A stretch of 64,000 nucleotides of DNA from Candidatus Bathyarchaeia archaeon. Its GTDB lineage: Archaea > Thermoproteota > Bathyarchaeia > Bathyarchaeales > Bathycorpusculaceae. Numbering within the stretch: position 1 is the stretch's first letter; every line of letters starts with the position of its first letter. This document shows positions 19,291 through 42,675 of the stretch, one piece after another. The stretch is taken from the NCBI GenBank assembly GCA_049515895.1, contig JBEKTQ010000016.1:32734-96733 (forward strand), given 5' to 3'. Below the pieces are notes generated by a model, which was not told where the DNA came from, ran no database searches, and saw nothing but the letters and a program-made list of their open reading frames with translations. The translations under genes and the position numbers were made by a program.

Positions 19291-19410
19291 GTTGACGTTA
19301 GTTGACTTTTGTTGACGTTAGTTGACTTTTGTTGACGTTAGTTGACTTTTGTTGACGTTAGTTGACTTTTGTTGACGTTAGTTGACTTTTGTTGACGTTA
19401 GTTGACGCAA
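19291..19410 (+). repeat. Tandem array: 12 GTTGAC cores at exact 10-bp spacing (20-bp unit GTTGACGTTAGTTGACTTTT); head of dispersed repeat copy B
   Basis: Read directly; followed by GACGCAACCTGCA at 19404-19416. Confidence 0.95.
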
Positions 19411-21155: not shown

Positions 21156-21175
21156 GGGCTCGTAGCCTAGCACGG
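21156..21175 (+). repeat. attL, a copy of the first 20 nt of tRNA-Arg
   Basis: GGGCTCGTAGCCTAGCACGG, identical to 37234-37253. Confidence 0.92.
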
Positions 21176-21278: not shown

Positions 21279-22529
21279 TTGCCAGGAGGCCTTTCTAAAC
21301 TGAAGGGAAACAAGCCCGGCTTCAACGAGAGCGACGCCTTCAACCACGTTAATTTTATTCGTGTAGGTCCGGGAGAGTTTGAAGATCTCCTGCGAAGAAT
21401 CAAAATGCTTGACGTCGCCGGGACAGTGAAGCCTGCAGACAAAGCATATGTTTCCCTCAATCCTGACGTGTCAATTTGGCAGAGCAATGTTGGTCCTGGA
21501 AGCTGGAATCATTACCTGACAAACCTCATTTATTTTTCGAAATGCGTGAACCTGACTCCGTCAGAATTGCTTAACCTCAAGGCCAGTGAGGATCCACAAC
21601 ACCGTTATTTTCCAGCTGAGCGATTGATTGAAACTTGGATCAAAATGGCAAGGCAGAAAGGCCTCCCTTCTTCCGTGATCTTCAACACTCTAAACGCGAC
21701 CCGGAGTTTCTTCCTGCACAGTAGGGCGCCTTTGCTCAAGATAGTATTTGTTTACAAGCCTAAACCAAAGAGGATACTGAACGAGGACATACTGAGAAAA
21801 TTCAGGGATGGCTTCAACTTTTACCTTAAAGTCCTGTTTGATTTTCTGATATCAGTCCCGGTGAGAGACGGCCAATTCACCAGGTGCAAGTATTGCGGCG
21901 AAGAGTTATTTCCAAGATGGCGCCACATAACGACGTTCCCAAGAATTGAACCGTACAGTCCATTCATAATCAAGCCACAGAAAGGCCATGATAGCGAGAG
22001 GTATCCTGACGGCCTAAGACAGGTTTGTTTCCTTACGAAAACATTGGCGAGTGAGTTGAACGCTCTGCGTGATTTGAAAGAAGCAATGTTGCAGCGGTCA
22101 CTTACGCCGGACGAATATATATTTACTCATCAAATAAACCAGGCGGGAATTCTACATGTGACGCCAATAACCAGGGAGACAATCGGAACTGTTTTCAGAA
22201 CTAACAAGCGCAAAACTGGAGAGCAGATTAATCCTCAACTCCTGCGCACCTGGGTAAACAGCACTCTGGCGTCAAGAGGCATAGAGAAGCAATTGAGAGA
22301 CATCTACCTTGGCCACACATGCGGGTACGAGATGGGCTACATTATGCAGTTGCTTCCTCAATGGCAGAGGACCTTCCGTAGAGCCAAGGCACTTGAAGCT
22401 CTGGATCTGATGGCCTCAGTGCACCGGCAAGAGAAGGCGCCAAAGCCTGAGTTGGCGCTTAGCAATCAAGAGTATGAGCTGCTGCGTAGCTTACTTAGGC
22501 GTTTCAAGGAGAGTGGAGCTGAGGTTTGA
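21279..22529 (+). CDS. Tyrosine recombinase-like protein 1 (divergent, internal CxxC)
   Basis: VPVRDGQ (R), QLLR (HxxR position), YLGH and downstream Y (EMGY); CKYC insertion. Confidence 0.65.
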   Translation: MPGGLSKLKGNKPGFNESDAFNHVNFIRVGPGEFEDLLRRIKMLDVAGTVKPADKAYVSLNPDVSIWQSNVGPGSWNHYLTNLIYFSKCVNLTPSELLNLKASEDPQHRYFPAERLIETWIKMARQKGLPSSVIFNTLNATRSFFLHSRAPLLKIVFVYKPKPKRILNEDILRKFRDGFNFYLKVLFDFLISVPVRDGQFTRCKYCGEELFPRWRHITTFPRIEPYSPFIIKPQKGHDSERYPDGLRQVCFLTKTLASELNALRDLKEAMLQRSLTPDEYIFTHQINQAGILHVTPITRETIGTVFRTNKRKTGEQINPQLLRTWVNSTLASRGIEKQLRDIYLGHTCGYEMGYIMQLLPQWQRTFRRAKALEALDLMASVHRQEKAPKPELALSNQEYELLRSLLRRFKESGAEV

Positions 22530-23501: not shown

Positions 23502-23701
23502 CGAAGAGAGAGCAGCTTCAAACCTCAATGGATAAGGTCCCGTTTTTCTGCTTGGTTGCCTTGGCCGTCATCACCGGGTACTCAGTCGTAAGCGTGATCA
23601 GCGTCCTGCTGAAGGTCTTCATAGTCGGGTACTGCGTGAGTGTAACCTCGCTGATCTTCGTAGCTTACAAGTTCTACTTGCAGGAGAATGTCAAGAAATG
23701 A
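23498..23701 (+). CDS. Small two-TM membrane protein
   Basis: 67 aa, hydrophobic; ATGA overlaps at both ends. Confidence 0.6.
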   Translation: MTKREQLQTSMDKVPFFCLVALAVITGYSVVSVISVLLKVFIVGYCVSVTSLIFVAYKFYLQENVKK

Positions 23702-24552
23702 ACAGCGATATCCCCCAAAAAATGACGAGGCGAACCGTCAAAACAATCAGCAAAACCATGGAGCCAAAGGAGGTTTTTGAATTGATAGCCTCCAAAGAAT
23801 ACGAGTATTCCCCGGACCTGGCGCCAGAATACCACGTCCACGATCGAGCAGGAATGGCCCTGAGCTACCTCACCTTTGGCCGCGTGACTGAGATCTTCGG
23901 AGGCCTTCAGTACCGGCGCATCTACGTTGCTGGACTCTGCTCGGACCCGCGGGATCCACACAACTGGAAAGAGGAAGTGATCGGCAAACATACCGGCCTA
24001 ACGAGGGAGAACGTTCAGGTCGACGAGAATTTTCTGCAGATTGTCACGATGCCGATAGTGAAGAGGAGCGAGAGAATCAAAGCGAAATATGGCCAGGAGA
24101 TAGCTCAAAGGAGTGCGCTAAGATTCCCCTTGAAATGCGGCCTCTACAACAATGCTTTCTATGATCAGCTGGTCCCGTTTGCCTGGTTAGTTCTTGAGTA
24201 CCTGGAGCGTTATGCTCCTGCAGCTGGGAAGCTCTTCCACTACCAGGATGCGCGCGCCTGGTTCATCATCAAGGAAGTAACAGGCCAATTTCCCAACTGG
24301 TTTAGGGCCCAGTCAGACCGGTTCTACAAGCAGTGTCTGTACCGCGGGGATCCCATTGGTTATGCCATCTTCGCCGGGAGAGTGAAGTCCGACAACACGA
24401 TGAGCTATCAGCGGTTCAGCTGGAATGCTGACCTCAAGGATCCCACTATGATCATGGACTTCAAGTGGATAGAGCCGGCAGTGGAGCAGGTCAAGGGCAG
24501 GATCCGGGAGGCTAAGCAGCTGCAGCAGGACGCCTTGGCTACACGTCTTTAA
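23698..24552 (+). CDS. Tyrosine recombinase-like protein 2 (catalytic domain only)
   Basis: YLTFGRVTEI (R box), PNWFRAQ (HxxR position with N), AGR...NTMSY (Y nucleophile candidate). Confidence 0.65.
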   Translation: MNSDIPQKMTRRTVKTISKTMEPKEVFELIASKEYEYSPDLAPEYHVHDRAGMALSYLTFGRVTEIFGGLQYRRIYVAGLCSDPRDPHNWKEEVIGKHTGLTRENVQVDENFLQIVTMPIVKRSERIKAKYGQEIAQRSALRFPLKCGLYNNAFYDQLVPFAWLVLEYLERYAPAAGKLFHYQDARAWFIIKEVTGQFPNWFRAQSDRFYKQCLYRGDPIGYAIFAGRVKSDNTMSYQRFSWNADLKDPTMIMDFKWIEPAVEQVKGRIREAKQLQQDALATRL

Positions 24553-24743
24553 GGCCTCGTGGGATAGGTCTGGACTGCGGTATAGGTGCCACGTGGCATG
24601 TGTCGACCACTCAGGGGGGCCGGTGCCGTCAAAGCGCCTGACGTGCGATTGTTTATTTATTTACCGCTACCACTACTACTAGAAGGATTTTCAGAGAAAG
24701 CAAACGACACGGCCTCATCAAGGGATGGTCGATGTATGGTGAA

Positions 24744-24769
24744 GTGACTTTACGAGCTGCTAAAGTCAC
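24744..24769. other. Candidate tyrosine-recombinase core site (9-8-9 inverted repeat)
   Basis: GTGACTTTA-CGAGCTGC-TAAAGTCAC with an asymmetric 8-bp spacer. Confidence 0.45.
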
Positions 24770-24803
24770 GTTATTTATTTTCCCCAGCTGCCAAAAAAGT
24801 TTT

Positions 24804-24825
24804 CGAGTTTCCACGTGGAAACTCG
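24804..24825. promoter_or_regulatory. parS-like perfect 22-bp palindrome
   Basis: CGAGTTTCCACGTGGAAACTCG; the 16-bp core is repeated at 32236-32251. Confidence 0.65.
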
Positions 24826-24841
24826 GTATTGAAGATCCAGT

Positions 24842-25315
24842 TTAGTGTTTTGGTTTGGGTGACTTGAGTCTATATCCCGCTTTGAGTAGGTCGTCCGGGG
24901 ATTGACTCATCTTCTTAGCCTCTTCAAGCAACACGTTTCTTTCCAGAAATTCTACGGCCTTCTGTCTCACTTCTTGCTCATCATAATCTGGAAAAAGTTG
25001 ATGAATTATCTCATGAAAAATATCGAGGGTTGCTTCAAGCAACGTATCACAATCTGGCGATCCTGCTATAATATCGTCGTCCCAAAAATGATATCTTGAC
25101 CATCTTATCTCATGACCGCGCTTGTCTGTATGCGCGTTTGCTTCATTGTGTTTGCACATGTTGCATCGGCAACCAGAGATAGTTAACTCGCAGAGTTTGT
25201 CGAGCTGCTCATCTGCTAGTCCCTCTCTTGGTACCAAGCTTTTGGCGAGATCCAGAATAAGCTCAAAGAATCTCTTTTGTGAAATCATTTTTGTTATCGT
25301 TCCTGAGTCTTTCAA
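24842..25315 (-). CDS. Small HExxH metallopeptidase-like protein
   Basis: IFHEIIHQLFPDYDE motif. Confidence 0.55.
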   Translation of the reverse strand: MKDSGTITKMISQKRFFELILDLAKSLVPREGLADEQLDKLCELTISGCRCNMCKHNEANAHTDKRGHEIRWSRYHFWDDDIIAGSPDCDTLLEATLDIFHEIIHQLFPDYDEQEVRQKAVEFLERNVLLEEAKKMSQSPDDLLKAGYRLKSPKPKH

Positions 25316-25398
25316 GCTTGTTACTATTTACGTATCAGTGAAAATTTAAGATTAATCCAAGAAGGAAGCGGCAAACTTCAACGAAAAAGGCTAGGGTG

Positions 25399-26460
25399 TC
25401 AGGCTAATCTTTTGTCGACGCGGATCTTCTTTAGGATCTCCCGGGCGCCCTTGTCAGCTCTCACTCTAAGATCCGCCACTAAAGCCAAGTTGAAGTAGTT
25501 ACTCATGAAAACATTGCTTGAAATTCTACCGTGTAAGAAGTCGATTTCTTCGCGTTTGAGCCACTGATTCATGAACGTTGCGTGTTGTTCTCTGACGTCG
25601 GAATACCTTACTGGGATCCCTTTCTTGATTAATCGACGCTGGACCGCATATGTGCTTGCGAACGGAGTCTTCTGAGCGATAGTGTCGATCAGTTGTTTTG
25701 GTGCGTAGCTGATGAATGCCTTCTTGGTGTTCCGGATGAAGATTTTCTTGAAGCGGAAGTGTTCCAGCATTCCGGATTCAGGATTGTAATATTGTTTCTC
25801 GAGGGTCCCTTCTTTGGCCAGTTGAATGATAAGATTGTAACTGTGAAAAGCTTCACTTAACCTCAATCCGGTAACCCCAATGTAATCGAGGAATTCGGTG
25901 AGGTCTGGACGAACAGTTTTAGCTTGGATAACCCAGTTGAATATTTCCTCAGGATTCTTGATTTTTGTCATGCGGTCGATTATGATGTCGTCGATGTTGC
26001 GGCCTGTCCAGCTGAGGCCGTAGGCCCTGACCAGGGAACGGAAGTCATCGTAGCATCCGAGAAACTTTGATAGTGCGCTGAGTGCTTTCAACGGGTTAGG
26101 GCGGATCGTGACTGGCAGCTTTCCGATTTCTGAAAGGTCCTTTGAGAAGAGGCAGTTCTTGAAGAACATCGCTTGGACAACCATTTGCCGCGAATTATGT
26201 TCGGTGTGGTTTTTTAGGAGCCAAGCTTTGAACTCCTGCCAGTCGACTTCTTTGGATAATGGGATTGAGGATAACGTCGAGTATTTTCCGGTGAGCTTGT
26301 CGATTTTCTCCTGGAGCGCGATCTCGCAGCATTTTGATATGTTGATGCTGAGCTCGTGGGCCTTGTCCACGAGTGCTCTGTTGACGCTCAAGGTTACTCT
26401 TTTGATTTTCAGTTTTGGGATTGCCTTGGTTATTATCCTTGTTTCTTGATCGGATGACAT
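25399..26460 (-). CDS. SSV1-like integrase (tyrosine recombinase 3) with N-terminal CcdA-like RHH domain
   Basis: TGLRLSEA, YSDVREQHATF, IDFLHGRISSNVFMSNY; N-terminal RVTLSVNRALVDKAHELSINISKCCEIAL. Confidence 0.8.
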   Translation of the reverse strand: MSSDQETRIITKAIPKLKIKRVTLSVNRALVDKAHELSINISKCCEIALQEKIDKLTGKYSTLSSIPLSKEVDWQEFKAWLLKNHTEHNSRQMVVQAMFFKNCLFSKDLSEIGKLPVTIRPNPLKALSALSKFLGCYDDFRSLVRAYGLSWTGRNIDDIIIDRMTKIKNPEEIFNWVIQAKTVRPDLTEFLDYIGVTGLRLSEAFHSYNLIIQLAKEGTLEKQYYNPESGMLEHFRFKKIFIRNTKKAFISYAPKQLIDTIAQKTPFASTYAVQRRLIKKGIPVRYSDVREQHATFMNQWLKREEIDFLHGRISSNVFMSNYFNLALVADLRVRADKGAREILKKIRVDKRLA

Positions 26461-26538
26461 GATTGTTTTCCTCGTTGTTTACGTAGGATTTTTTTGACTA
26501 AAAAAGGGGAAGTGTTGAATGTTGACTCTGCAACTACT

Positions 26539-26907
26539 CTAGTTTGAAGTTAACTCTGCTGCAGGAGCTTCCCGGATCTCTCGCCTGATTGCTTCGGAAC
26601 TGTTGATTATCAGAAGAGCTCCAGTGCCGTTCTCGTAGGGAAAGAATTCCAGTCGGTCTTTGTTGCTTGTCCACTCTGCGAGTTTCGGCAGGTCCTGAGG
26701 TAGGATCCTGGCCATTATGTGAGCTTCGAAACTCTTTCCCCACTTCAAGCCTGGACTGAAGATGTCTTTGTGCTGCATGTCGGTTACTTCTTTCTCGAGG
26801 AACTGGTCCGTCAGCTGCTCAACGCTCAGGTTGAATTTCTCTGCGAATTGTTGGAGTTCTTTATAGAGGTCCTGTCGGACCGGGATTGAAAACGGTTTTT
26901 GTTCCAT
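26539..26907 (-). CDS. Putative ribbon-helix-helix regulator with extra C-terminal domain
   Basis: Likely start MEQKPFSIPVRQDLYKELQQFAEKFNLSVEQL at 26907. Confidence 0.55.
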   Translation of the reverse strand: MEQKPFSIPVRQDLYKELQQFAEKFNLSVEQLTDQFLEKEVTDMQHKDIFSPGLKWGKSFEAHIMARILPQDLPKLAEWTSNKDRLEFFPYENGTGALLIINSSEAIRREIREAPAAELTSN

Positions 26908-26995
26908 GTTTCCTTTCACCTTTAGATACTTATAGGTATCTACCAGTACCTTTATATTCACAAGTATTTAAATATACTCATAGGTGCATAGAAAT

Positions 26996-27145
26996 ATGGC
27001 TAAGAATATGAAAAGATTTATGATGTCAGTTTCAGATGAAATGCATGCAGAGCTCGAGAAAGAAAGGAAGGAAAGGCGCTTGGAAACAGTCCAGGAAGTA
27101 ACACGGCAAATAGTCGCTGACTACCTCAGAAAGAAGGAACAGTAA
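26996..27145 (+). CDS. 49-aa ribbon-helix-helix (CopG-like) regulator, not in the ORF track
   Basis: Own translation: MAKNMKRFMMSVSDEMHAELEKERKERRLETVQEVTRQIVADYLRKKEQ; AGGTG and TTTAAA upstream. Confidence 0.7.
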   Translation: MAKNMKRFMMSVSDEMHAELEKERKERRLETVQEVTRQIVADYLRKKEQ

Positions 27146-27204
27146 TTTAGCGCTCAACAGATTCTCGTTCAACTTCCTTGGAACAACTGAAGTAGGATTG
27201 CAAT

Positions 27205-27798
27205 ATGCGCAGACTAATGATTTATTACAAAGCCTTGTCTGCTGGGCTATCAATGTTTATTTTTACATTGATTGGAGGGTTCACATTTGGTTCAATTATC
27301 CATGAGGCAGGTCACGCCATTGTAGGAATGGCCGTTGGATTCAGAATCAAGTCATGGTCCATTGCCGGGGTGGTTTTCGCTTCCTATATGCCCAATGGAC
27401 CGGCAAAACTACTAACATTGTTGGCGGGAGGATCCGCAGAAGCGTTGAGCGCTTCGTCCGCTTTTCTCTTTGTCCGCTATCTTGCTCGATATGTCTTCAG
27501 AAAAAACGAGATCATAAAAGTACGATCGATCGATGCTGGAATGAACCGAGGTTTGTCTAACTTTCAACTTCAATTCTTGCCATTTATCCTCTTTGGAATT
27601 GAGGTTGCCTTTTTGTCGTTTATATTTCATGGAGTCGTCGCAGGAATCTGGGAAGGATTATTCAACAGCAGTTATGTTGCTTTCAGTGGTGAACCTGTTC
27701 TCGAGGTGTTTGCGGTTGCTGTATTTTTGTGGATGGCCTTCGAAATACTGTACAGTCGACAAAACAAATATCTGAAAAGTTTAGCCTTCGTGGATTAA
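27205..27798 (+). CDS. Membrane metalloprotease, M50-like
   Basis: IIHEAGHA within a TM segment, LAGG motif, several TMs. Confidence 0.7.
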   Translation: MRRLMIYYKALSAGLSMFIFTLIGGFTFGSIIHEAGHAIVGMAVGFRIKSWSIAGVVFASYMPNGPAKLLTLLAGGSAEALSASSAFLFVRYLARYVFRKNEIIKVRSIDAGMNRGLSNFQLQFLPFILFGIEVAFLSFIFHGVVAGIWEGLFNSSYVAFSGEPVLEVFAVAVFLWMAFEILYSRQNKYLKSLAFVD

Positions 27799-28221
27799 TT
27801 AGGTTAACGCGGCAAAAGGTTCCTCGAGTAACCTCAGAGTTTTTTAGAAATTTGCCTGGGTTACCGACTTCAAAACTTAGTAGTGTTTCCCAGTTTCGTT
27901 TATGCTTGGATTCCACGTTGATGTCGTTGAGATTATTTGGTCCACATTGGCAACTCACATTCATCCACTCATTTGCTCCGTGTGAATTTGTAATGTCCCT
28001 GTCAAAAATCCCAGTGTAACTATAGAAGATTGCTAAGTTTTACGCAACCTATACGTACACACCCTCAAATTCCGTGGACTATTTTTCCATGAAAACTGAA
28101 TCCCTCGTAAGATAGTCCATGAAGAATGTTGAAAACTGCAGAGGATTATCGAACGGCAGCAACAATAAATTACGACAACTCGCCTTCAAAAGCAGAATTC
28201 CAAGCCTTTTCACCTGGGAAT

Positions 28222-28527
28222 TTAGGATGGCAGATCCGGGAGAGACGGGGGAATATCAAGTTTCCATCCTTCTCTCTGTTTCTGCTTAATCGTTTCCAAT
28301 ACCTCAGGTTGACTAACTGCGAAGCAGACATGCGCGCAGCTGCCACCGCTTCCAGGAAAAACAGGTGCCTCGAGACGCAAAAGACTGCTTGTTTTCGTCA
28401 GTGTAGTGTGGTCACAGAGACTGCAGAAGATTCCTCTCGGGGTGATCTGGACGTCGACGGGTCCTAACTTGTCGTCCATTACTTTAACGACTAAACTCAA
28501 GCTTTTCTTCGCTGAGTGTTTCTTCAA
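28222..28527 (-). CDS. Hypothetical protein with Cys/His motifs
   Basis: FCSLCD...SCAHV (SWIM-like); co-oriented with neighbours. Confidence 0.45.
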   Translation of the reverse strand: MKKHSAKKSLSLVVKVMDDKLGPVDVQITPRGIFCSLCDHTTLTKTSSLLRLEAPVFPGSGGSCAHVCFAVSQPEVLETIKQKQREGWKLDIPPSLPDLPS

Positions 28528-28589
28528 CGATGTGCAGCTCCTCTGTCATATTGATAGATTTATGTATAAAAGTTCTTGCAGAGCTGTCG

Positions 28590-29837
28590 CTACCGCCTTC
28601 TGCCCCCGAACACAAGCGCGATCAAAACGACGAGTAGCCAGGGCGCGAAGATGATAACCAGGATGAGAAGGCCGATGGTTGTGAGGATCCCGATGTTGAC
28701 GGGGTTACTTAGCCAGGTGACGAGTCCGCTCAGGATCGTGTCTGTAGTTGTTTCTGGCGCAAACCTTCCAAATTGACTATTATCATTTTGGATGTTCTGA
28801 ACCGTGTATTGGCCAATTACGAAAACTGTAACGTCAAAGTCAAAGGTAGCGACGTCGCCATGAGTAACTGAACTTGTACCCAAATTCGTTGAGTCTGCGT
28901 AGCTTCCAAAATGGCTAAGGTCAATCGCGAAGTAAGTTGTGTTTAGGAAGTATTCTGGATTCAGTACGTGTCCCTCATAGGTTTCAGGTACAACTTTGGG
29001 TATGTCTGTTGACCCAAACGGACTGTAATGCAGGTAGACAGTGGATTGCGCGGATTCAGGGTTTGTGCTTTCGTAGCTTCCGCCAATGGGAAGAGAAACC
29101 ACGCTGCCGCTGCTGGTTCGCGCGTTAAACATCGCATTGTCGTCTAGCTGGATCGATGCGATCGCAAAATATGCTGTTCCGCCACCTTGAATATACCAAC
29201 TTGGAGTTGTGTCAACCTTGAACCAGATCCACAGGTCGTTATACATGTTTTCGACATGTGTGATAATCGGCCACTGAAGATAAATTGCTGGATTCTGTGC
29301 TGCGGTTGGCCATTCAGCGCTGAATGAAACATAGTATTTCATTTCGTATTGGGACATCGCAATCATTAGGGGGGTTCCGCTGCTGTCTGTCACGTTCCAA
29401 TTGTAAGTTGCATCGGGGTTTGTTCCGGTCCACCCTGGAGCATAATTAAACAGATCATCATTCTGTATCCAGGAAGTGGGGATAGATATTCCTGTAACGC
29501 CTGGAAAGCTCATGTGGGCTACTGACTGTGTGGGTTCAAAGACGCTTGTCATTTCTGCTTCGACTGTAGGTACTTTGATGGGGAATGCTGCAGTTGGGTT
29601 TATCACGTTTGGACTGTAGCTTAAGGTTGTTGTGGGGTTGAAGTAGGTTTTTCCGTTGTATTGTTCGCCATAGATGCTTATGTTTGGGGTAAATGCAGTT
29701 GGGTAACCGTCGCTGGAAACGACGGAAAGAGGTTGGAGATGGCTACTTCCCGGTGACAACGTTAGTGCGAGAGCGAAAATTCCAATTATGATGAAGATAC
29801 CGTACATTCTGCCTTGGTTGGCTTTTGCTTTGTTCAT
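28590..29837 (-). CDS. Membrane-anchored surface protein (N-terminal signal/TM, beta-rich ectodomain, C-terminal TM and RRR)
   Basis: 415 aa, Ser/Thr/aromatic-rich; several N-x-S/T sequons. Confidence 0.75.
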   Translation of the reverse strand: MNKAKANQGRMYGIFIIIGIFALALTLSPGSSHLQPLSVVSSDGYPTAFTPNISIYGEQYNGKTYFNPTTTLSYSPNVINPTAAFPIKVPTVEAEMTSVFEPTQSVAHMSFPGVTGISIPTSWIQNDDLFNYAPGWTGTNPDATYNWNVTDSSGTPLMIAMSQYEMKYYVSFSAEWPTAAQNPAIYLQWPIITHVENMYNDLWIWFKVDTTPSWYIQGGGTAYFAIASIQLDDNAMFNARTSSGSVVSLPIGGSYESTNPESAQSTVYLHYSPFGSTDIPKVVPETYEGHVLNPEYFLNTTYFAIDLSHFGSYADSTNLGTSSVTHGDVATFDFDVTVFVIGQYTVQNIQNDNSQFGRFAPETTTDTILSGLVTWLSNPVNIGILTTIGLLILVIIFAPWLLVVLIALVFGGRRR

Positions 29838-29914
29838 CTTATTCCTCTTGTTTTTCTTTGGTTTACTTCGTACCTGTGACTTTGGATGCTGCTACTTACG
29901 CTAAGACCGCTCGA

Positions 29915-30130
29915 TCATCCGGGACTCTTGAGATGTAGCGCGTGCTGGAGATCTGTCCGGATGATCTCGAGGCTTCTAATGACGTCTTCGATCGGTGTTT
30001 CTTCTGAGTAGAATACTACAGCTGCGCGGCCGGTGACTGCTGTAAGTTTGGGGCCAAGGACCTTGTAGATTCCCTTTGGGATGTAGGCCAGATGCTGCTC
30101 GGGATTTACTTTGACTGTGAACTCGGCCAA
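29915..30130 (-). CDS. AbrB/MazE-like small regulator
   Basis: FTVKVNPEQHLAYIPKGIYKVLG pattern. Confidence 0.55.
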   Translation of the reverse strand: MAEFTVKVNPEQHLAYIPKGIYKVLGPKLTAVTGRAAVVFYSEETPIEDVIRSLEIIRTDLQHALHLKSPG

Positions 30131-30237
30131 TCTGATTCCTCACTTAAGAAAATATTAAGGTTAATGAGAATTTAATTATTGAAACGAGAAACCTGAAAAT
30201 TTCGAGTTGGAAGGTTCAAAAGCGAAACAAAGAAGTG

Positions 30238-31104
30238 TTAAGTCATACCAATTTCGCTGCATTTGTGGTCGACGTCGAGATTTGGGAAGGACCCGCATCT
30301 TATTATCTTACGGCATTCCGGACAAAAAGCGTGTATCGCCTCTCCGTTTCTTGTGAGCTCCAGGTACTTTGTCAGAACGTCTCCACTTAGCTGATTTAGA
30401 AACCTGGACTCAATATTGAATTTGAAGTACTGGAATACTACTCTTTGATCTTTTTCGCAAAGCCCCTTATACTTCCTCTCAATGAGTTCGTTCATAGCTT
30501 TTCTTTCGCTGCTTTCTTCAGAGTTGCGCGCCAGGTGTGTATTGAAATCTATAAGGATGGTTTTGCCGAATGCTTCTGGGTCAAAGGTGCCTTTAGCTAG
30601 ACCGTCAAACAGTTGACGAAGGAAGTTTTCACCCATCAAAAAATGGAAGGTTGTTGAGTCTGTTGTCTCCTTCAGTATGCTCAATGAGAATTTCCAAATA
30701 GGGTTATCTTGTTGTGGCAGCGAGTCAAACGCTCGAGAGATCAAGTAAGGCCTACTCAGCAGTGCTCCAGCTAAGATCTGACCTTGGAAAGTCAATGAGT
30801 ACATCAACTTGTCTGGGACGGGTCCCCTTTCGCTCTTAACAGTTCCCGTTACTTCAACAAACCCTTTTTTCTCAAGCTTACTGATTAATGGATAGACGAT
30901 GGAAGACGACAGCTGCGTTAACTGGTCTGTCCTACGCATGATTTGATTCCTCGACAGAGGCTTGTTTTCATTAACCATCTTCGTGAGAATGCGGCCAAGA
31001 TTGCCTACCGTTTTCTTGTCGATTCTTTCTCCAAAAATTTGGGTGAGATGTTTCTGCAGAAACCTTGTGTTGCCGTTCCTTTGTTGCGTTTTTGAAGCCT
31101 CCAT
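30238..31104 (-). CDS. Winged-helix regulator with C-terminal Cys cluster (repressor candidate)
   Basis: SSSIVYPLISKLEKKGFVEV...YSLTFQG wHTH; CPEC...C...C. Confidence 0.65.
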   Translation of the reverse strand: MEASKTQQRNGNTRFLQKHLTQIFGERIDKKTVGNLGRILTKMVNENKPLSRNQIMRRTDQLTQLSSSIVYPLISKLEKKGFVEVTGTVKSERGPVPDKLMYSLTFQGQILAGALLSRPYLISRAFDSLPQQDNPIWKFSLSILKETTDSTTFHFLMGENFLRQLFDGLAKGTFDPEAFGKTILIDFNTHLARNSEESSERKAMNELIERKYKGLCEKDQRVVFQYFKFNIESRFLNQLSGDVLTKYLELTRNGEAIHAFCPECRKIIRCGSFPNLDVDHKCSEIGMT

Positions 31105-31182
31105 TTCGAAATTTTCGAAACTTTCAGTTAAACCGTTAAGTTCTCTATGAGTATTTAAGACTATCTAACAGAGGTTAGACAC

Positions 31183-31404
31183 TTGGAAAACAATTACGAC
31201 CAAAAAATCATCCAGTTCTTAGAAACCGCGGAAAACCCCATGGACATAGAGAAGATCCGAATCGAAGTTGGCATCGGCAATTGGAATACAGCATTGAAAC
31301 ACTGTTTAGAGCTCCTGGTTGCCAAGAAAATAAGCGGCCAGAAGACCAGCAAGAGCTGGGTTTTTTGGGCTACATCGAAAGAAGCATTTGTAAAAACAAA
31401 CTGA
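31183..31404 (+). CDS. Small winged-helix DNA-binding protein
   Basis: 73 aa; GIGNWNTALKHCLELL...GQKTSKSWVFW. Confidence 0.65.
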   Translation: MENNYDQKIIQFLETAENPMDIEKIRIEVGIGNWNTALKHCLELLVAKKISGQKTSKSWVFWATSKEAFVKTN

Positions 31405-31420
31405 GGGAGGCAGTCGCAGG

Positions 31421-31561
31421 ATGACGGAGCTGCAGATCAAGATTGAAAAGTGTAGCCAGTGTTTGCATTTTCAAGGAAGAAAGTGTCAGTTAGGCTACAA
31501 CGTCAAAGCACACTCTAAACCCTGCAGTCAAGGGATAGCTCGCGTGAGGCAGCTGCCATGA
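31421..31561 (+). CDS. 46-aa Cys4 microprotein, not in the ORF track
   Basis: Own translation: MTELQIKIEKCSQCLHFQGRKCQLGYNVKAHSKPCSQGIARVRQLP; GGAGG upstream; ATGA overlap with the next ORF. Confidence 0.6.
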   Translation: MTELQIKIEKCSQCLHFQGRKCQLGYNVKAHSKPCSQGIARVRQLP

Positions 31562-31746
31562 ACGAGCGTCACCATAGAATGCCGGATGGCGCCTTAGTCA
31601 TTTGTGATGGAACCCGAGAAGGTTCAGAACTTGGTTCTGCCGGCAGGTGTCCAAAAGCTCCAAGGTGTGCTAACTACAAGGTAAGAAAATGCTTCATAAA
31701 ATGCGCTGACTTCACCGAAAAACAAACGGCTAACTTGGTGTACTAA
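31558..31746 (+). CDS. Small Cys-rich protein
   Basis: 62 aa with 5 Cys; translationally coupled. Confidence 0.5.
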   Translation: MNERHHRMPDGALVICDGTREGSELGSAGRCPKAPRCANYKVRKCFIKCADFTEKQTANLVY

Positions 31747-31747
31747 A

Positions 31748-33154
31748 ATGGAAGCATCTAAGCACGAATTAATTCTTGTTGGATTGCTGCAACCAAACCG
31801 GTTCAACCCAAACGTCATGCAGGCCACGGAGTTCCATGCCTTAAGGCAGGACATGGAGCTGAACGGCCCCGAAGGAATAGACCCGGTCTTGGTCAGTCCC
31901 TACCGCTGCTTCTACATGGGCGAAGACGCCAACCCCTTCTACGTGATCGTCGACGGCGAACACCGCTGGAAAGCGGCCAAGGAACTCTGTTGGAATGAGA
32001 TCCGCTGCGAGGTCCGCGAGCTCAACGAGCAGGAAGCCAAAGTAATCTGCTACCGGAAGAACAAGGACCGCGGCACAATCGACCCACTCAAAGAAGCTGC
32101 CCTCTTCAAGGGTGAACTGGACCTGCAGTTTAGCCAGAAAGACATCGCTGAAATGTTCCTGGTGGATCAGTCGACTGTAAGCCAAAGGCTCAGTCTTTTG
32201 AAGCTCGTCCCAGAAGTCCTTGCCGAAGCAAAAAAGTTTCCACGTGGAAACATTACCGTAAGCCATTTGGAACCTATCGCTTCCCTCCCGGAAGGCGAAC
32301 AGAAAAAGATCAGTCTGGAGAACCGCTGGGAAAAAGGCCAAGCGCGCACAGTCAGGGAAATCACTGACGAGGTGCACCGGATAAAAGAAGAGCTGGCAGC
32401 GAAAGAGTCCTTGAGGAAGGCCCTTGAAACCGCCAAGTTTCCTAAGTGTCCGAAGTGCAAGCAGGCGCCGAGCGCTGCTACTTATCAAAAGCTGCCATGG
32501 GTGCGGTGCTCAAGCGGAAACTACGACCACACCTGGAACTTAGACACGGGAAAACTCGAATATGAATCGACATCGACCTCAAGAAGGACCTCTCAACCAA
32601 GGCCTGAAGTCAGCAACATCATCCGAAGCAACTTCACCATAGACGAGCTCTCAGAAGCGTTTTTTAAAACAATCCACGCAGTGCTGCCGAAGTTAGATGC
32701 TGCAAGCAAAATCTCAATCACTGGTCTAATCGACAAAACCATGTTCATAGTGAGCTTTGACCACGGTCCCAACGGAATGCACGTCTACGTAGACTACGGA
32801 GGACAAAGCATCAGCTTCGGAGCTGAACCAAAACAGTATCACACCGGTCAAAAATCCAAAATAGACATGGGAATTTACCAACCGAAACAAGCGGACCTGG
32901 ACCGACATCTCGAGTTCATTGAGAACGCATTCAAGAACATATTGCTGCCGCTGCCGGAGAAGAAACCGAAGCGCCTCAGAGAAGAGATCCCTGCTGTAGC
33001 TGCAGCTGAAGAAACGCCTCGAGTAGTTCCCTGCGAGTCCTGCAGCAATGACTCTGACAATGGCGGAAGCTGCCACCGGGAACAATTCCACGTCGTCGAC
33101 GGCCATGAAGGCTACTTCTGCGAACACAAAAAACCCTTGGAGCGTAAGCAATAG
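31748..33154 (+). CDS. parB: ParB/Spo0J-family protein with HTH and Zn-ribbon extensions
   Basis: PNRFNPN, IVDGEHRWKAA (GxxR box), DPLKEA, SQKDIAEMFLVDQSTVSQRLSLL HTH. Confidence 0.88.
   Translation: MEASKHELILVGLLQPNRFNPNVMQATEFHALRQDMELNGPEGIDPVLVSPYRCFYMGEDANPFYVIVDGEHRWKAAKELCWNEIRCEVRELNEQEAKVICYRKNKDRGTIDPLKEAALFKGELDLQFSQKDIAEMFLVDQSTVSQRLSLLKLVPEVLAEAKKFPRGNITVSHLEPIASLPEGEQKKISLENRWEKGQARTVREITDEVHRIKEELAAKESLRKALETAKFPKCPKCKQAPSAATYQKLPWVRCSSGNYDHTWNLDTGKLEYESTSTSRRTSQPRPEVSNIIRSNFTIDELSEAFFKTIHAVLPKLDAASKISITGLIDKTMFIVSFDHGPNGMHVYVDYGGQSISFGAEPKQYHTGQKSKIDMGIYQPKQADLDRHLEFIENAFKNILLPLPEKKPKRLREEIPAVAAAEETPRVVPCESCSNDSDNGGSCHREQFHVVDGHEGYFCEHKKPLERKQ
32236..32251. promoter_or_regulatory. 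parS-like palindrome inside parB
   Basis: GTTTCCACGTGGAAAC, identical to 24807-24822. Confidence 0.65.
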
Positions 33155-33156: not shown

Positions 33157-34986
33157 ATGACTGATCCTCCCTGCAAGCTTCCGGTCACCTCGGATCTCCC
33201 GCAGACTCCGCCGGCGCCGAACCCTGAAAGAGAAGCCTGGCAGAAAGAAGTGAAAGAAGCAGCTGAGCTCGAAAGAAAGAACCCGATGTACGGCATCTCC
33301 CACAAGTTCTATCCGGTGTATGATGATTTTTGCCCCATGGACAATGAAGGCGTAAACAGCTTAGGCTTCAAGCCGGCCCTGGTTGCCAAGTGGCTACAGC
33401 AAAACGAGAATTTCAAGACCGACCTGGACACGGGGATCCTGTATTTCTACGATGGAAAAAGCTGGATCCCAAACGCGGAGCCCTATCTGGAATTCATACT
33501 CTCAAAGATACTGGACCAAGAAAACAAGCGCAGCTACTTCAACGATATCCTGCATGATTTGAGGGGCTTAACTTACGACAGATTAAAGTTCAGCTCAAAA
33601 ATCGCAGTAGAAAACGGGCTCTTAGACATTGAAACCCAAACACTCTCAGATTTCAACGAGAAAGAAATGGCCTTCCACGAGGTCCCAGTGAAGTATGATC
33701 CAGCTGCTGAGTGCCCGAATTGGGAAGAGTTCATCAAGCAGGTAGTTAACTCTGATGATCTCGCCACGATCCAGGAGTGGAGTGGTTTCCTACTCTTGCC
33801 TGATTACCGCTTCCACAAGCTCTTGTGGGTCCATGGTGAAGGCCGAAATGGTAAGGGTGTTTGGCAGCGCACTATGGAAGGGATCCTGGGAGAAAAGAAT
33901 GTTTCAAGCTTAGGCCTCGAGGAGTTCGACGGAAACCACCGGTTCGCCTTGGAGCGGCTCTACGGAAAACTATTCAATCCATGCTCGGAACCAACAACGA
34001 ACCGCATTCTGCAGACGCCTCTCCTCAAGAAAGCAACCGGCCAGGACACGATCGAAGCGGAGATCAAGGGCAAGCAGGCCAGGATCCAATTCAGAAACTA
34101 CGCAAAGATAACCGTGATCGCCAACAAGTTCCCAAGAGTCAACGACACCACAACGGCCTTCAGAGAGCGACGTCTCTTCATCAAATTTCCCAACGAATTC
34201 ATAGGTAAAGAACAGATCCAGAACCTGGAACAGAACTGGCTAAACAACCCGGAAGAAAAATCCGGGGTCCTCAACTGGATGCTCAAGGGCCTGATGCGTC
34301 TGCTGTCCCAAGGCTACTTCACCGAAAGCAAAACACAGCAGGAAACCGAGATAGAATTCCAGCGGGCCAGCGACACCATCAGCGCCTTCCTAACTGAGAT
34401 CGGGATCCTCGACAAGAACATGGTAACCACCAGGAGCACCGCTTTTGAATCATACAAGAACTACTGCGACGTCTTCGGCCTGAGCCCGGAGAATGACAAA
34501 AAATTCACTCAGAGACTGAAAAACACTCCAAAGATAACTGTTACCCTGATCCATAAGCCAAAAATAGAGCGTGCCTGGAAAGGATTAGGCCTAAGGACCA
34601 TAGACGATGAAGGAAAGATCGCTGCAGCTGGCGCTGCAAATAGTACACTTGATACAGTTGATACACATTTAGGGGAGTTTACACTCCTCCACACTAATGT
34701 GAAAGATTCTTCTCTAGATATAGAGGAGAGTGGTACACGTGTATCAAGTGTATCATCTGTATCAGATTCTAAACCAACCTTTCATGTCAAAGACATTCCT
34801 GCTGGCGAGAAATGCGACTGCGGAAAACTCGCGGTAACTAAAGAGATCGTGACTCCACTTGGCGACACTATGAGACGCTGCCAGGAATGCTTTGAGGATC
34901 TACGCAAAAAGTTCCAAGAAGCCAACTGGAAAAAAGGCTACGAAGAACTGCCTGATTATGAAGAGAGAGGAGAGGAGGATCCGTAA
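33157..34986 (+). CDS. SF3 helicase, D5/P4-family plasmid or virus replication protein (no evident primase domain)
   Basis: IAVENGLLD, YDPAAECPNW, GEGRNGKG Walker A, LKKATGQD...EIKG, AFRERRLFIKF. Confidence 0.9.
   Translation: MTDPPCKLPVTSDLPQTPPAPNPEREAWQKEVKEAAELERKNPMYGISHKFYPVYDDFCPMDNEGVNSLGFKPALVAKWLQQNENFKTDLDTGILYFYDGKSWIPNAEPYLEFILSKILDQENKRSYFNDILHDLRGLTYDRLKFSSKIAVENGLLDIETQTLSDFNEKEMAFHEVPVKYDPAAECPNWEEFIKQVVNSDDLATIQEWSGFLLLPDYRFHKLLWVHGEGRNGKGVWQRTMEGILGEKNVSSLGLEEFDGNHRFALERLYGKLFNPCSEPTTNRILQTPLLKKATGQDTIEAEIKGKQARIQFRNYAKITVIANKFPRVNDTTTAFRERRLFIKFPNEFIGKEQIQNLEQNWLNNPEEKSGVLNWMLKGLMRLLSQGYFTESKTQQETEIEFQRASDTISAFLTEIGILDKNMVTTRSTAFESYKNYCDVFGLSPENDKKFTQRLKNTPKITVTLIHKPKIERAWKGLGLRTIDDEGKIAAAGAANSTLDTVDTHLGEFTLLHTNVKDSSLDIEESGTRVSSVSSVSDSKPTFHVKDIPAGEKCDCGKLAVTKEIVTPLGDTMRRCQECFEDLRKKFQEANWKKGYEELPDYEERGEEDP
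34644..34764. repeat. Two oppositely oriented sets of 9-bp-period repeats within the helicase gene (candidate replication origin)
   Basis: TACACTTGA TACAGTTGA TACAC ... GTGTATCAA GTGTATCAT CTGTATCA. Confidence 0.6.
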
Positions 34987-35772: not shown

Positions 35773-37170
35773 ATGACTGAGACTGAGATCCGAGGAAAGG
35801 CGCCTGCTCCTTCTGAGAGCATACTTGGCAGTAAGGGAGATGGTTATTCCACCTCTCAGGCGCCCCCTAAAGGACCTCAACAACCCAGCAACACTCGTAT
35901 TGAGAAGCCCTCCATATGCCCTCAATGTGGAAAGTCTCGATTCTTCCATGACGGACATCGTCATCAAGATGGTATGGACCTCCAACGCTATATATGTCGA
36001 GATTGCGGCCATAGGCCCAGCGACATTCTAACTGGGCAAAGCTTATTTGCACAACACCACAAGACTACAATACGCCAAGTATGCGCTATCTCAGAGGAAG
36101 CGAAAAACTTGACTGGAGAAACAACTGAACAAGTCAGTGTTTCGCCAGGAGAAAACTGTACAGAGCTCACCGTCAAAGCTGACATAGACCTAGTGATCGC
36201 AGACTACAAACAGTACATCCAAAAAGAACACATCGTAAACGACTTAACTCTTAGCAAATACGTATCTCGGCTCAAATGGCTTGCCCATGAAATCGGCGTT
36301 AACCTCTTTGAACCCGAAGATTTCAAACGGAAATTAGCATTCAACTCAGAGCTAAGCGCTAAATCGAATTGCAATAAGAACAGTATCTGCAAGGCATACA
36401 TCAGCTTTGTTAAGCGCTATCTTCACATGGAAGACGTCAAGATACCTCACTTTGAGTACAAAACGCCGGAGTACAATGTCCCGGAACCCAACCATATGGA
36501 ATTGCTATACGCTGCACTTAGCTTTCAAATGCAAGTCTTCTGCTTCGTATTAATGGCAACCGCGGCCAGACCTATCGAGGCTCTAAGAATCGAATGGAAA
36601 GACATAGATTTTGCGAGAAAGACAATCGCCATTAACAAGCCAGCTAAACATGGGAGAACAAGGACGGCCCAACTGAAAGGACGCTTCGTCAAAGTCATGG
36701 ATATGCTGGCAGATCTGAAAGACCGTCAAACAACTATTGCCACCTGTCGCAACAGAAAACAAAGAAATCTAGACCTAGTCTTCACATACAAAGACACGGA
36801 TACCGCTGGACAAAACTTCAGGCGAGCAAGAAAAGCAGCAGCTAGACGCTTAGGTATGCCAGAGCTAAGCAAGATTACGTTCTACAGTAATCGCCATTGG
36901 CGAGCAGTTCTTGAACGGTACCTGAAAGGCAACTCAGATGCTGTTGCAAACCTTCTGGGAGAAAACTCTGACAAATATGTCAAAGTTTACGCCCCAATAT
37001 CTGAACGACTCTACGGCAGCGACAAAGAGTGGGAGCCTATCGAAGTCTCTGAAACTGACCCTGACTACAGCGAGAAGATGAACCGTTACGGTGCTGAAGG
37101 GTATCAAGAGTATAACTACAACCGAACGACAGGCAGACATTATTTGCGGAAGGAGAAGAGTGCTTACTAA
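35773..37170 (+). CDS. Integrase (tyrosine recombinase 4) with N-terminal InsA-like Zn ribbon; probable cognate integrase
   Basis: CPQC...QRYICRDCG, TAARPIEAL, AKHG, YSNRH, LLGE...VKVY; ends 63 bp before attR. Confidence 0.88.
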   Translation: MTETEIRGKAPAPSESILGSKGDGYSTSQAPPKGPQQPSNTRIEKPSICPQCGKSRFFHDGHRHQDGMDLQRYICRDCGHRPSDILTGQSLFAQHHKTTIRQVCAISEEAKNLTGETTEQVSVSPGENCTELTVKADIDLVIADYKQYIQKEHIVNDLTLSKYVSRLKWLAHEIGVNLFEPEDFKRKLAFNSELSAKSNCNKNSICKAYISFVKRYLHMEDVKIPHFEYKTPEYNVPEPNHMELLYAALSFQMQVFCFVLMATAARPIEALRIEWKDIDFARKTIAINKPAKHGRTRTAQLKGRFVKVMDMLADLKDRQTTIATCRNRKQRNLDLVFTYKDTDTAGQNFRRARKAAARRLGMPELSKITFYSNRHWRAVLERYLKGNSDAVANLLGENSDKYVKVYAPISERLYGSDKEWEPIEVSETDPDYSEKMNRYGAEGYQEYNYNRTTGRHYLRKEKSAY

Positions 37171-37233: not shown

Positions 37234-37309
37234 GGGCTCGTAGCCTAGCACGGATTAAGGTGTCGGCCTTCGGAGCCGGAGATCGTGGGTTCAAATCCCA
37301 CCGGGCCCG
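37234..37309 (+). tRNA. tRNA-Arg(TCG); its first 20 nt form attR
   Basis: GGGCTCGTAGCCTAGCACGGATTAAGGTGTCGGCCTTCGGAGCCGGAGATCGTGGGTTCAAATCCCACCGGGCCCG; anticodon loop CT-TCG-GA. Confidence 0.95.
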
Positions 37310-37523
37310 CTTAAATTCCTTCGTAGAAAAACGCAAAGGGATTTTTAGCGAATAGAATTGCAAAAAGTAGAATATATTCAATAATTCTATTGCATAAAGC
37401 AATCAAAGAATGTTTGAAAGTTTAAGATGGGAAAAATCATTGAGTCGTTTCTTTAGAATTTTGGCTGACCGCGAATCGGATCAGAGTCTTTCCAGTGACC
37501 AATTCGAAGACAAATGTTAAGAT

Positions 37524-38165
37524 CTAAGGTTCTTCTTCTGCTTCGCTGATTTGTGGTTTTTGGGTTTCTTCTTGTTTAGTTTCTTTTTCCGGCAAAACGG
37601 TTTCTGCTTTTTTGGTTTCACTTGAAAGCAGCATATTGATTAGTGCCTTCTGGTCCACTTCCGCCCTTGTTCGCCAATCAAGATACAATTGCCCATTATC
37701 ATCTTGCCCCAAGTAACCATAGCGGATGTAGCGGTCAATGTTTAAGCCGATTTTCCAGTTGGGCATTTTCTCGCCAAGCAGTTGCTCAACATCTTTTCGC
37801 GACACTTGCCCTTTCTTGCTAATTATGAAAGAAATTGTTATGGCTAAGCCAGCTAAATCATCGATGCGCCAACCAATCAGCTTATCCTTAGTCGCCAAAT
37901 CGCCGCGCAATGCAACGTAGAATCTTGCTTTATCCAGTTCCTCCAACGTTGGCTTTTCAGGAGTTTTTTCCTCTTCAAAAACAACTTTTACCTGAAGGTC
38001 TAGTGGTTTAAGGTAATCGTCAAGCAAATCGAGCACTTTGGAGTAGTCTGAGCCCAAGGCTTTATGCAGTTCAGAGCCTCTGGCGCCTGGCTTCTGATGC
38101 CTCTTATAGAAGAGCGTTTGAGTTGCTTTCTTGATTTTGCTGCCGTAAACGCCTTTCTTGCTCAA
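37524..38165 (-). CDS. Tandem winged-helix protein, kite-like (ScpB/Nse-type) SMC partner
   Basis: Third gene of the SMC operon; two wHTH-like halves (…IDRYIRYGYLGQDDNGQLYLDWR). Confidence 0.55.
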   Translation of the reverse strand: MSKKGVYGSKIKKATQTLFYKRHQKPGARGSELHKALGSDYSKVLDLLDDYLKPLDLQVKVVFEEEKTPEKPTLEELDKARFYVALRGDLATKDKLIGWRIDDLAGLAITISFIISKKGQVSRKDVEQLLGEKMPNWKIGLNIDRYIRYGYLGQDDNGQLYLDWRTRAEVDQKALINMLLSSETKKAETVLPEKETKQEETQKPQISEAEEEP

Positions 38166-38989
38166 TCAAATTTCCCCTCCTTCCATTTCCGCCAATCTTC
38201 AACGGAAACAGCGATGGCCACAGATGTTGACTGTTGAGTTAAAGGTTCAATTCTCGGCTTTTGGAATGGGGTTATGAAAACAAGCTCCTCCAATGCGTCG
38301 ATTTCTAACGTCGCAAAACCGTAAGTAATTAGGAAGCTGGTCAAGAAGGCTCTTTGGACTGTTTGTTCATAGGTGCCTGCGCCGATGAAGTCCCAATAGT
38401 TGACTTTGCCCTCTTGGCCCTCCTTAGCGACGCAATCCTTGAGTTCTTGCCAATAGGTGTTGAGCTCCACCGAGAACTCCTTGTCGCTAAGGACGCGTTG
38501 TTTAATCAACTCGTCCCTGCTTGCATAACTATTTGAAACTTCAGCGGCTTCAAAACCTTTCCATCTTTCGCTGACAGGCTCCAACGCTTCCCAATACAGC
38601 AGTCCCTGAGCCAGAGAGTTAAGGCTGACTTGTTCAAATTCGATCAATGGACTCCACGCATGAAGAAAGACATCAACCATTTCCTGCGTACCTATTTGCA
38701 AGATCTTTTCTTCCAGAAGAAAAGGGTCAGTATAAAGTGCTGTTGAGCGCTGCTTCACCCATTCACTCTGCATTTTGATAACTTTTGCTAAGTGGTGTAG
38801 GGTTTCAGCGTCAAGTTTGAGCTCCTCAGGGTCCTGCCAATGCGGAAAATACTGCTTAACGATCTGTATAATTTCATCAATGTTCAGCGTGAAGGGTTCT
38901 GCCGTGCGTTTTTCGATAGCGAGGCACATTTCAATTATGCGTTCAAGCCTTTCCTTGCCTAAAGCTTTGGTTTCTTTCGCCCTCGGCAT
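38162..38989 (-). CDS. Kleisin-like (ScpA-like) protein
   Basis: EPFTLNIDEII...AKVIKMQSEW N-domain; RAFLTSFLITYGFATLE C-terminal WH as in kleisins; coupled to SMC. Confidence 0.65.
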   Translation of the reverse strand: MPRAKETKALGKERLERIIEMCLAIEKRTAEPFTLNIDEIIQIVKQYFPHWQDPEELKLDAETLHHLAKVIKMQSEWVKQRSTALYTDPFLLEEKILQIGTQEMVDVFLHAWSPLIEFEQVSLNSLAQGLLYWEALEPVSERWKGFEAAEVSNSYASRDELIKQRVLSDKEFSVELNTYWQELKDCVAKEGQEGKVNYWDFIGAGTYEQTVQRAFLTSFLITYGFATLEIDALEELVFITPFQKPRIEPLTQQSTSVAIAVSVEDWRKWKEGKFD

Positions 38990-42500: not shown

Positions 42501-42506
42501 TCTGAT

Positions 42507-42668: not shown

Positions 42669-42675
42669 TTAGGGA

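Follow-up and report, generated by a model that had tools for sequence, protein, structure and literature searches.

What does a ParB protein act on when its gene travels without a ParA? Orphan ParBs are common on archaeal mobile elements and have no known DNA target, and 17 of 28 ParB-fold proteins in one survey were inactive in vitro, possibly for want of their DNA (PMC12704722). The question is raised here by a 64,000-nucleotide stretch of a Candidatus Bathyarchaeia archaeon genome (GCA_049515895.1, contig JBEKTQ010000016.1, positions 32,734 to 96,733; hereafter the window, whose numbering is used unless another contig or locus is named). Within it lies an integrated mobile element of 16.1 kb that carries an orphan parB gene (31748..33154, + strand) for a protein of 468 residues. 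A preliminary description of the window had proposed that this ParB and three nearby palindromes form a clamp module that works without a ParA of its own. As judged from sequence comparison, the site is kept under selection, is restricted to the element, and tracks the ParB recognition helix, and both a ParA and a ParA-binding motif are absent. Element specificity, synonymous conservation, and helix covariation together make a ParB-site pair without ParA very likely.

The Three Palindromes and Their Distribution

All three palindromes lie where they were first placed. The 16-bp palindrome GTTTCCACGTGGAAAC (32236..32251) is within parB, where it encodes residues 163-168 (K-F-P-R-G-N) in the loop after the helix-turn-helix (HTH), and it is the predicted loading site of the protein. 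A perfect 22-bp palindrome (24804..24825) holds a copy of this 16-mer at 24807-24822, checked to be exact, and a 12-bp palindrome, TGCCACGTGGCA, occupies 24587..24598. Both of the latter are in the noncoding gap between two convergent open reading frames (ORFs), 23698-24552 (+) and 24842-25315 (-).

The genome contains 54 perfect palindromes of at least 16 bp, so that a lone one is unremarkable, and the nonchance signal is instead that the 16-mer recurs exactly at a distance of 7.4 kb and that the family motif is confined to the element. Two copies of the 12-bp core TTCCACGTGGAA are present in the window, where 0.16 are expected and none of 100 shuffles reaches 2, and the 3,184,081-bp genome has no others. 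The relatives' motif, TKCCACGTGGMA, has three exact matches genome-wide, all in the element (expected 0.56 in the genome and 0.003 in the element). The enrichment anticipated for a genome scan is thus seen with both the core (2/2) and the motif (3/3). Because the motif includes the 24587 site, this copy, which had been called the weaker one, is better described as the commonest site variant in the ParB family and not as noise.

The description of these sites as bacterial-type parS is not established and captures only the variant that this clade carries. The in-gene 16-mer and the bacterial parS TGTTCCACGTGGAACA have the inner 12 bp in common, but the two are not within 2 mismatches, other clades have quite different palindromes, and the window site carries T at the outer position where bacterial parS has the G read by ParB R173. 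On this comparison, the window site is parS-like and not a bacterial parS.

Two further origins for the sites were considered and rejected. The extragenic 16-mer does not appear to be a parB remnant, as the flanks align over 17 bp only and the family DNA profile gives no second match. A role as host chromosomal parS finds no enrichment, with CCACGTGG occurring 24 times in the genome and the 12-bp motif near chance level across 401 genomes of the class. Separately, contig C19 of the same genome has two perfect 16-bp palindromes 220 bp apart (34580 and 34361), outside long ORFs; the one at 34580 is the in-gene site type of the L058 ParB clade, and no such ParB was found in the genome.

Selection on the In-Gene Palindrome

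The comparison covered 117 genes that remained when 143 genes whose helix could be aligned were dereplicated at 90%; 47 are core and 70 more distant members, and 31 of the 117 encode the Pro-Arg-Gly (PRG) peptide. In these relatives, mostly archaeal proviruses, the in-gene palindrome keeps the same codon position. The prediction that it would be kept at synonymous positions was borne out: the PRG Pro codon is CCA in 30 of 31 genes (139 of 670 at other Pro codons of the same genes) and the Arg codon is CGT in 29 of 31 (98 of 806 at other Arg codons). The two third positions that flank the PRG core pair with one another in 30 of 31 genes (G:C 20, T:A 9, C:G 1), and among 60 conserved degenerate columns the strongest codon fixation is seen at P165 and R166 (0.95, where the median is 0.45; 22 genes). 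At least seven of eight base pairs are retained in 31 of the 47 core genes and all eight in 21, and 25 beat a synonymous-resampling null at p ≤ 0.05; among the 70 more distant genes, nine have all eight pairs and 16 pass the same null.

The sequence of the palindrome differs between clades yet remains symmetric. Clades without PRG carry other perfect palindromes in the same loop, such as TTGACCACGCGCGTGGTCAA (L034), TGTTACACGTGTAACA (L037), and AGTATGTAGATCTACATACT (L062). Second ParB-HTH paralogs on the same loci (L152 7217-8560, L148 303-1688, and L031 8029-8862) each have their own, different in-gene palindrome, with 8/8 pairs in L152 and L031/L028 and 7/8 in L148. These patterns indicate that the palindrome is under selection as DNA. 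We note that the parB genes of L033, L030, L047, and L228 have an insertion of 40-45 residues between the HTH helix and the site, and that the palindrome is still six codons before the SHLE helix.

Could the palindrome be chance, or a byproduct of a conserved peptide? PRG is nearly invariant in the core family, and 124 of the 401 genomes contain the 12-bp motif alone. Against this stand the paired third positions, the different peptides that encode different perfect palindromes, and the exact second 16-mer within 7.4 kb. The synonymous null, the codon fixation, the element-only motif, and the codon-column ranking refute the idea, and we assign it a negligible probability.

The feature is not general. 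Among 96 further ParB-like genes, drawn from the host order and viral scans, nine have 8/8 pairs and 11 pass at p ≤ 0.05. The genome's other ParB (contig C3, 27069-27728) has no in-gene palindrome and no ParA nearby. Two more viral scans mostly gave unrelated phage ParB-N proteins. The C3 protein has canonical GERR and ENLERN boxes, and its gene overlaps one of 494 aa (C3 25588-27072) in another mobile-looking region. We take the product of this overlapping gene to carry a Toprim-like motif.

Covariation of the Site with the Recognition Helix

The base at site position 1 is a G in the case of bacterial ParB, where it is read by R173, and an A in the case of Noc, where it is read by Q158 (PMC7383237). 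By alignment to Noc structures, the equivalent residue of the window protein is Q141, which lies in the recognition helix of the HTH (residues 138-152; codons 32159..32203, +). A code table of 61 genes, with rows chosen by at least 7/8 pairs or by the CCACGTGG core, places Gln with A in 49 of 56 half-sites (T in 7, G in none) and Arg with G in 24 of 26 (T in 2, A in none). The five Gln/Arg genes among the nine perfect palindromes of the later screen of 96 genes all obey this rule (L260 had already been examined before that screen), among them the closely related L436 (Arg, G) and L475 (Gln, A). Canonical chromosomal ParB has R173 and G201 and a site with G at position 1, whereas the window protein has Q141 and S172 and a site with T; some relatives do show the canonical combination at position 1, for example L033, with an Arg at the helix position and the exact bacterial-type site TGTTCCACGTGGAACA. 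When the helix and loop are excluded from the tree, 10 changes are counted for each trait, and all seven independent pairs on supported branches agree (p = 0.016), with 44 of 46 rows scorable and the window (Gln, T) and L041 (Arg, T) unscored. Since the site tracks the recognition helix as it does in bacterial ParB and Noc, we consider it very probable that this ParB reads and binds the palindrome.

Several points temper this conclusion. The 61 sites were picked for palindromy, with hand edits: L021, L031, and L045 were added; the L004 site was set by hand; and L017, L082, L083, and L112 (the last three AT-rich) were dropped. One of the seven agreeing pairs joins two long branches, and a first pair test with 41 rows and a quick tree had only two pairs on supported branches (p = 0.5) and was uninformative. 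The window pair is itself an exception, with Gln141 and yet T at position 1 in both strong sites, and the 24587 site has the predicted A in one half only. In the core family, Pro is as common at this helix position as Gln (27 and 26 of 66, respectively), from which we infer that position 1 may be loosely read in the window clade.

Something other than ParB might also read the palindrome, as an RNA hairpin or terminator or as a site for a tyrosine recombinase of the element. The 22-bp copy does score as terminator-like on the - strand, with a T-rich tail after it, and the element has several recombinase-like genes. Both fixation and self-complementarity of the presumptive loop make an RNA hairpin unlikely: the CGT codon of the loop is among the most fixed, and 51 of 61 sites have a self-complementary central 4 nt, in seven different sequences (partly by site selection). 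The site moreover follows the ParB helix, paralogs have separate sites, and the other recombinase-like genes lack a homolog in the relatives' loci. Another reader is improbable on this evidence.

The ParB Protein

The GEHR box and HTH noticed at the outset are both present. Pfam ParB_N (PF02195) and then HTH_ParB (PF17762) match above cutoff, followed by a long helix, a Zn-ribbon-like Cys cluster, and an α/β C-terminal domain. Box II reads D-G-E-H-R at residues 69-73, and its phosphate-binding motif G70-E71-H72-R73 (31955..31966, +) aligns to the GERR of Noc. The predicted structure has a mean predicted local distance difference test score (pLDDT) of 88, and the nearest solved relatives, by sequence and by fold (Foldseek), are Noc, ParB, and KorB. 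A family search gave 73 matches, the window protein included. Across 66 family proteins, the G, E, and R of Box II are invariant and the H is kept in 65; N105 and R108 of Box III are nearly invariant; and C234 and C237 occur in all 66 and C254 in 64, a pattern suggesting that the Cys cluster binds zinc. The specificity quartet Q141/R147/K152/S172 matches neither RTAG nor QKKR. Relative to the Noc quartet Q158/K164/K169/R186, it has Q and K in common and Ser in place of R186, and the TIGR04285 (Noc) score is 56.3 bits against a cutoff of 315.

A dimer model supports C-terminal dimerization. Two copies of residues 1-410 gave an interaction prediction score from aligned errors (ipSAE) of 0.74, compared with 0.00 for the best of three controls, and the interface falls in the predicted dimerization domain (residues 287-400; 32606..32947, +). 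Twenty of 30 solved dimers clear the mark applied, as does 1 of 23 single chains; runs agreed on at least 77% of contacts, with pLDDT of at least 76. The fold of this domain had no usable match in the Atlas, in BFVD (best E 0.014), or in VIA, where the best match (Z 6.1, root-mean-square deviation 4.6, 105 aligned) is a generic helix-grip/KA1-like arrangement.

From the architecture, the protein may be a CTP clamp, and we think it probable that it closes and slides. Set against this are the catalytic positions, the Box I Gln and the Box III Glu (PMC13245405), which are replaced by Asn and by Arg or Lys, respectively, each in 63 of 66 family proteins. The R204 equivalent is Glu in all 66, and the score for TIGR00180, a mark of canonical chromosomal ParB, is 48.7 bits, under the 58.45 cutoff. 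In the survey of ParB-fold proteins, 17 of 28 tested bound no nucleoside triphosphate (NTP), and nucleotide preference was unpredictable from sequence or AlphaFold 3 (PMC12704722).

This divergence raises the alternative of a plain HTH dimer that sits on the palindrome without nucleotide or sliding and acts as a transcription roadblock on its own gene, the NTPase domain having another role or none. Such a protein would fit the observation that the invariant feature is a single site in the gene itself. The invariance of G70, E71, and R73 and the near invariance of N105 and R108 speak against it, the SCP1 ParBs with divergent boxes still hydrolyze CTP (PMC13245405), and extra copies of the site lie far from parB. 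We consider the roadblock unlikely, and sliding the better account.

Site Layout and the Absence of ParA

Five whole virus records (three at least 90% complete) hold nine exact copies of the motif, five in parB and four elsewhere, where 0.04 are expected and a reversed-pattern control gives none. Three of the four extra copies are noncoding, and they lie 5-24 kb from parB; in G637, both repeat that virus's own in-gene 16-mer. The layout is thus a single in-gene site accompanied by none, one, or two dispersed copies. A proposal that extra sites cluster beside parB in relatives was rejected, as none were present within the fetched flanks and extras were seen only in whole virus records. It counts against the reading favored below that, among 61 loci (23 with at least 5 kb of flank), the window alone has an extra copy of its gene's own site (≤1 mismatch) in the fetched flanks.

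The absence of a Walker A ParA from the element, as originally noted, also holds. No ParA-type Walker A was found in the element or, by motif, in 61 relative loci, and the six AAA_31 matches above cutoff in the genome are all on other contigs. Pfam detected no ParA among 258 neighboring proteins of 18 loci, in a scan from which 12 of 157 and 54 of 167 called ORFs, chiefly short ORFs and the parB genes, were excluded, and none of the five virus records has a ParA, with the positive control detected in 14 of 14 genomes. The N-terminal ParA-binding motif (L/F/I)G(K/R)G(L/F/I), as defined in PMC12704722, is absent from the first 80 residues of all 66 family proteins, which have at most ∼20 residues ahead of the first conserved motif. 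By these searches, the two marks of a Type I ParABS system, an adjacent ParA gene and a ParA-binding motif, are both lacking.

ParB clamps on these same sites might nevertheless serve the inheritance of an excised circle, tethered to a host ParA/MinD-family ATPase, to an SMC complex, or to the chromosome. The site evidence is the same as for a regulator. In addition, parB directly precedes a primase-helicase gene, the AAA_31 matches show that the host has candidate ATPases, an SMC-like operon adjoins the insertion site, and ParB1 of SCP1, whose in-gene site is one of three, serves plasmid stability (PMC13245405). The lack of a ParA-binding motif and the short stretch ahead of the first conserved motif speak against this account, as do the relatives, which are integrating proviruses: close ParB homologs sit in proviruses with terminase, portal, and integrase genes. 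The sequencing depth of the element equals that of the chromosome, and no circle junction of an excised element is listed in the contigs of four DNA runs, although contigs drop rare forms. The SMC adjacency is absent in L015, where the host flank is TBP, and in the window it is probably due to the tRNA target of integration. We regard segregation as a lesser possibility, though the most credible of the alternatives.

Proposed Role of the ParB-Site Module

We favor the reading, to which we assign a probability of roughly 0.5, that the protein is a self-loading sliding-clamp regulator of the element and not an agent of ParA-driven segregation. ParB would bind the in-gene palindrome and the two intergenic copies via its HTH and, dimerized C-terminally, would close as a nucleotide-gated clamp, probably with CTP. 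The closed clamp would slide from the palindrome along the element, giving feedback on its own operon and acting on a divergent promoter region 1.1 kb away. Its role would probably be that of a long-range regulator like KorB (PMC11790492) or BisD (PMC12409273), which are precedents for ParB clamps in regulation. The region in question contains a PadR-like winged-helix gene (30238..31104, -; PF03551 E 4.4e-5, below cutoff), divergent from the parB operon; with the promoter region, ∼1.1 kb from the in-gene site, it is a candidate regulatory switch. The PadR-like gene and two small ORFs (26984-27145 and 31183-31404) are candidates for a partner DNA-binding protein.

Among the three proposed roles, regulation seems preferable to segregation and to host-factor recruitment, given the absence of ParA and of a ParA-binding peptide, the few dispersed sites, and the integrating hosts, and we hold it to be the main job with slightly better than even odds. 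It counts against such a role that neither a conserved partner to lock the clamp nor a target promoter could be identified, and that the neighbors differ between elements. Overall, comparative support for the site is strong, whereas support is moderate for the clamp and weak for the role.

Because the helix codons and the site are ∼70 bp apart in one gene, they would be inherited and altered as one unit, such that different elements, and paralogs on one element, would have non-crossing pairs. A broader proposal, which we put forward tentatively, is that archaeal viruses and elements carry self-addressed ParB cassettes in which the site sits just behind the helix codons and both coevolve by the bacterial ParB/Noc code, the ParA-free, non-crossing NTP clamps serving as long-range silencers or in lysogeny or immunity control. 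If so, archaea would have a type of viral regulator that has not been described in them. The family itself would carry parS-loaded ParB clamps into the archaea and the viruses that infect them. In practical terms, the predicted cognate site of every protein can be taken directly from its gene, so that assays of binding, nucleotide use, and sliding are within immediate reach. There are dozens of natural helix-site pairs, whose variety far exceeds that of bacterial parS and the Noc-binding site (NBS), and they would be useful for studying the evolution of DNA specificity and as non-crossing DNA-labeling pairs.

The Element and Its Host

The element is bounded by a 20-bp repeat of the tRNA-Arg(TCG) 5' end. 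The left attachment repeat (21156..21175, +) matches 37234-37253 exactly, which is the right repeat and the first 20 bp of the tRNA gene (37234..37310, +). An empty insertion site is seen in contigs of two other sequencing runs (X3 and X4), which join 21114/21144 to 37234; among RNA datasets, no holder of the element sequence is listed. The gene order of the right half is PadR-like (-), three small ORFs, parB, a D5/P4 primase-helicase, two ORFs without assignment, and an integrase. The primase-helicase gene (33157..34986, +; TIGR01613 above cutoff, Pfam D5_N) is directly 3' of parB, and the tyrosine integrase gene (35773..37170, +; PF00589 above cutoff, PHROG integrase) adjoins the right attachment site. 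Up to four genes are tyrosine-recombinase-like (21279-22529, 23698-24552, 25399-26460, and 35773-37170), with family support only for the last two, 25399-26460 having an N-terminal CcdA-like match; the first two are recombinase-like by eye. No capsid family matched an element protein in Pfam and PHROG scans.

The host genome has a NucS equivalog above cutoff and a TackOD1 domain and is thereby archaeal. In the class, 43 of 401 genomes have a match to the ParB family profile, most of them a weak one, which is the distribution expected of a mobile gene. A host operon (37524-41028, -) to the right of the insertion site comprises a gene for an SMC-like ATPase that is short (679 aa) and scores under every SMC/ASRP cutoff, a kleisin-like gene (Nse4_C above cutoff), and a 213-aa gene. 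A second mobile-looking block (41268-46958) has a Cys/His-rich ORF of 410 aa (41268-42500, no family over cutoff) and an integrase (45801-46958) that has 38 bp in common with the element integrase at 84%. Contig C22 of the genome has short DNA matches (72-84%; 1552-1813 and 48187-48256) to the left part of the element, which suggests a related element without ParB. A tandem array of the 20-bp unit TTGACGTTAGTTGACTTTTG lies at 19290-19405, upstream of a BrkB-family gene.

Comparison with Known Systems

The closest parallel in layout is the Streptomyces plasmid SCP1, whose ParB1/parS1 and ParB2/parS2 systems likewise have HTH-ParBs, each with a cognate palindrome in the gene that encodes it; there are three sites for each system, the two pairs on the plasmid do not cross, and the CTPase boxes are divergent (PMC13245405). 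Unlike the present case, SCP1 is bacterial, has parAB operons, and needs ParB1 for plasmid stability (PMC13245405); here, the host is archaeal and the element integrating, with neither a ParA nor a ParA-binding motif. SCP1 uses a similar layout for stability, and segregation via a host factor keeps some plausibility for that reason.

Bacterial ParB-parS and Noc-NBS show the same domain order and fold, their palindromes of 14-16 bp have an identical inner core, and the Arg-G/Gln-A rule holds at position 1 (PMC7383237). The proteins described here differ in having Glu at the R204 equivalent and a C-terminal half (Cys cluster and α/β domain) that is unrelated by the searches run, and their site varies widely between clades, whereas bacterial parS is conserved. 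In Bacillus subtilis, parS-359 lies in parB. Strain names of the form "parB(mtparS)" fit such an in-parB parS (PMC8357415).

Regulatory precedents come from two mobile elements. KorB of plasmid RK2 is a ParB-family clamp that acts on promoters up to 1.5 kb away; it differs in also serving partition and in needing KorA for locking (PMC11790492), whereas the present elements have 1-3 sites each and no locking partner could be identified. BisD of ICEclc is a ParB-like protein of an integrated element, with two palindromic bisS sites inside genes and a C-terminal domain proposed to dimerize; its sites are in other genes (inrR and ssb), it activates together with BisC, and it is bacterial (PMC12409273).

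Orphan ParB-fold genes without ParA on archaeal mobile elements have been reported, with no DNA site named in the accessible text of those reports (PMC12704722, PMC6563490, bioRxiv 2024.03.22.586370); the present comparison yields both a site and a rule for its recognition. The literature searched, with most subscription papers and supplements outside it, gave no archaeal parS for an HTH-ParB, and the datasets of PMC12704722 may list family members; a paper on Bathyarchaeia viruses (PMC10541130) does not mention ParB in its main text. In-gene cognate sites and non-crossing pairs are known already from bacterial ParABS (SCP1), and orphan archaeal ParBs are known without sites. The addition made here, predicted from the genes themselves, would be a site and a recognition rule for an archaeal orphan HTH-ParB.

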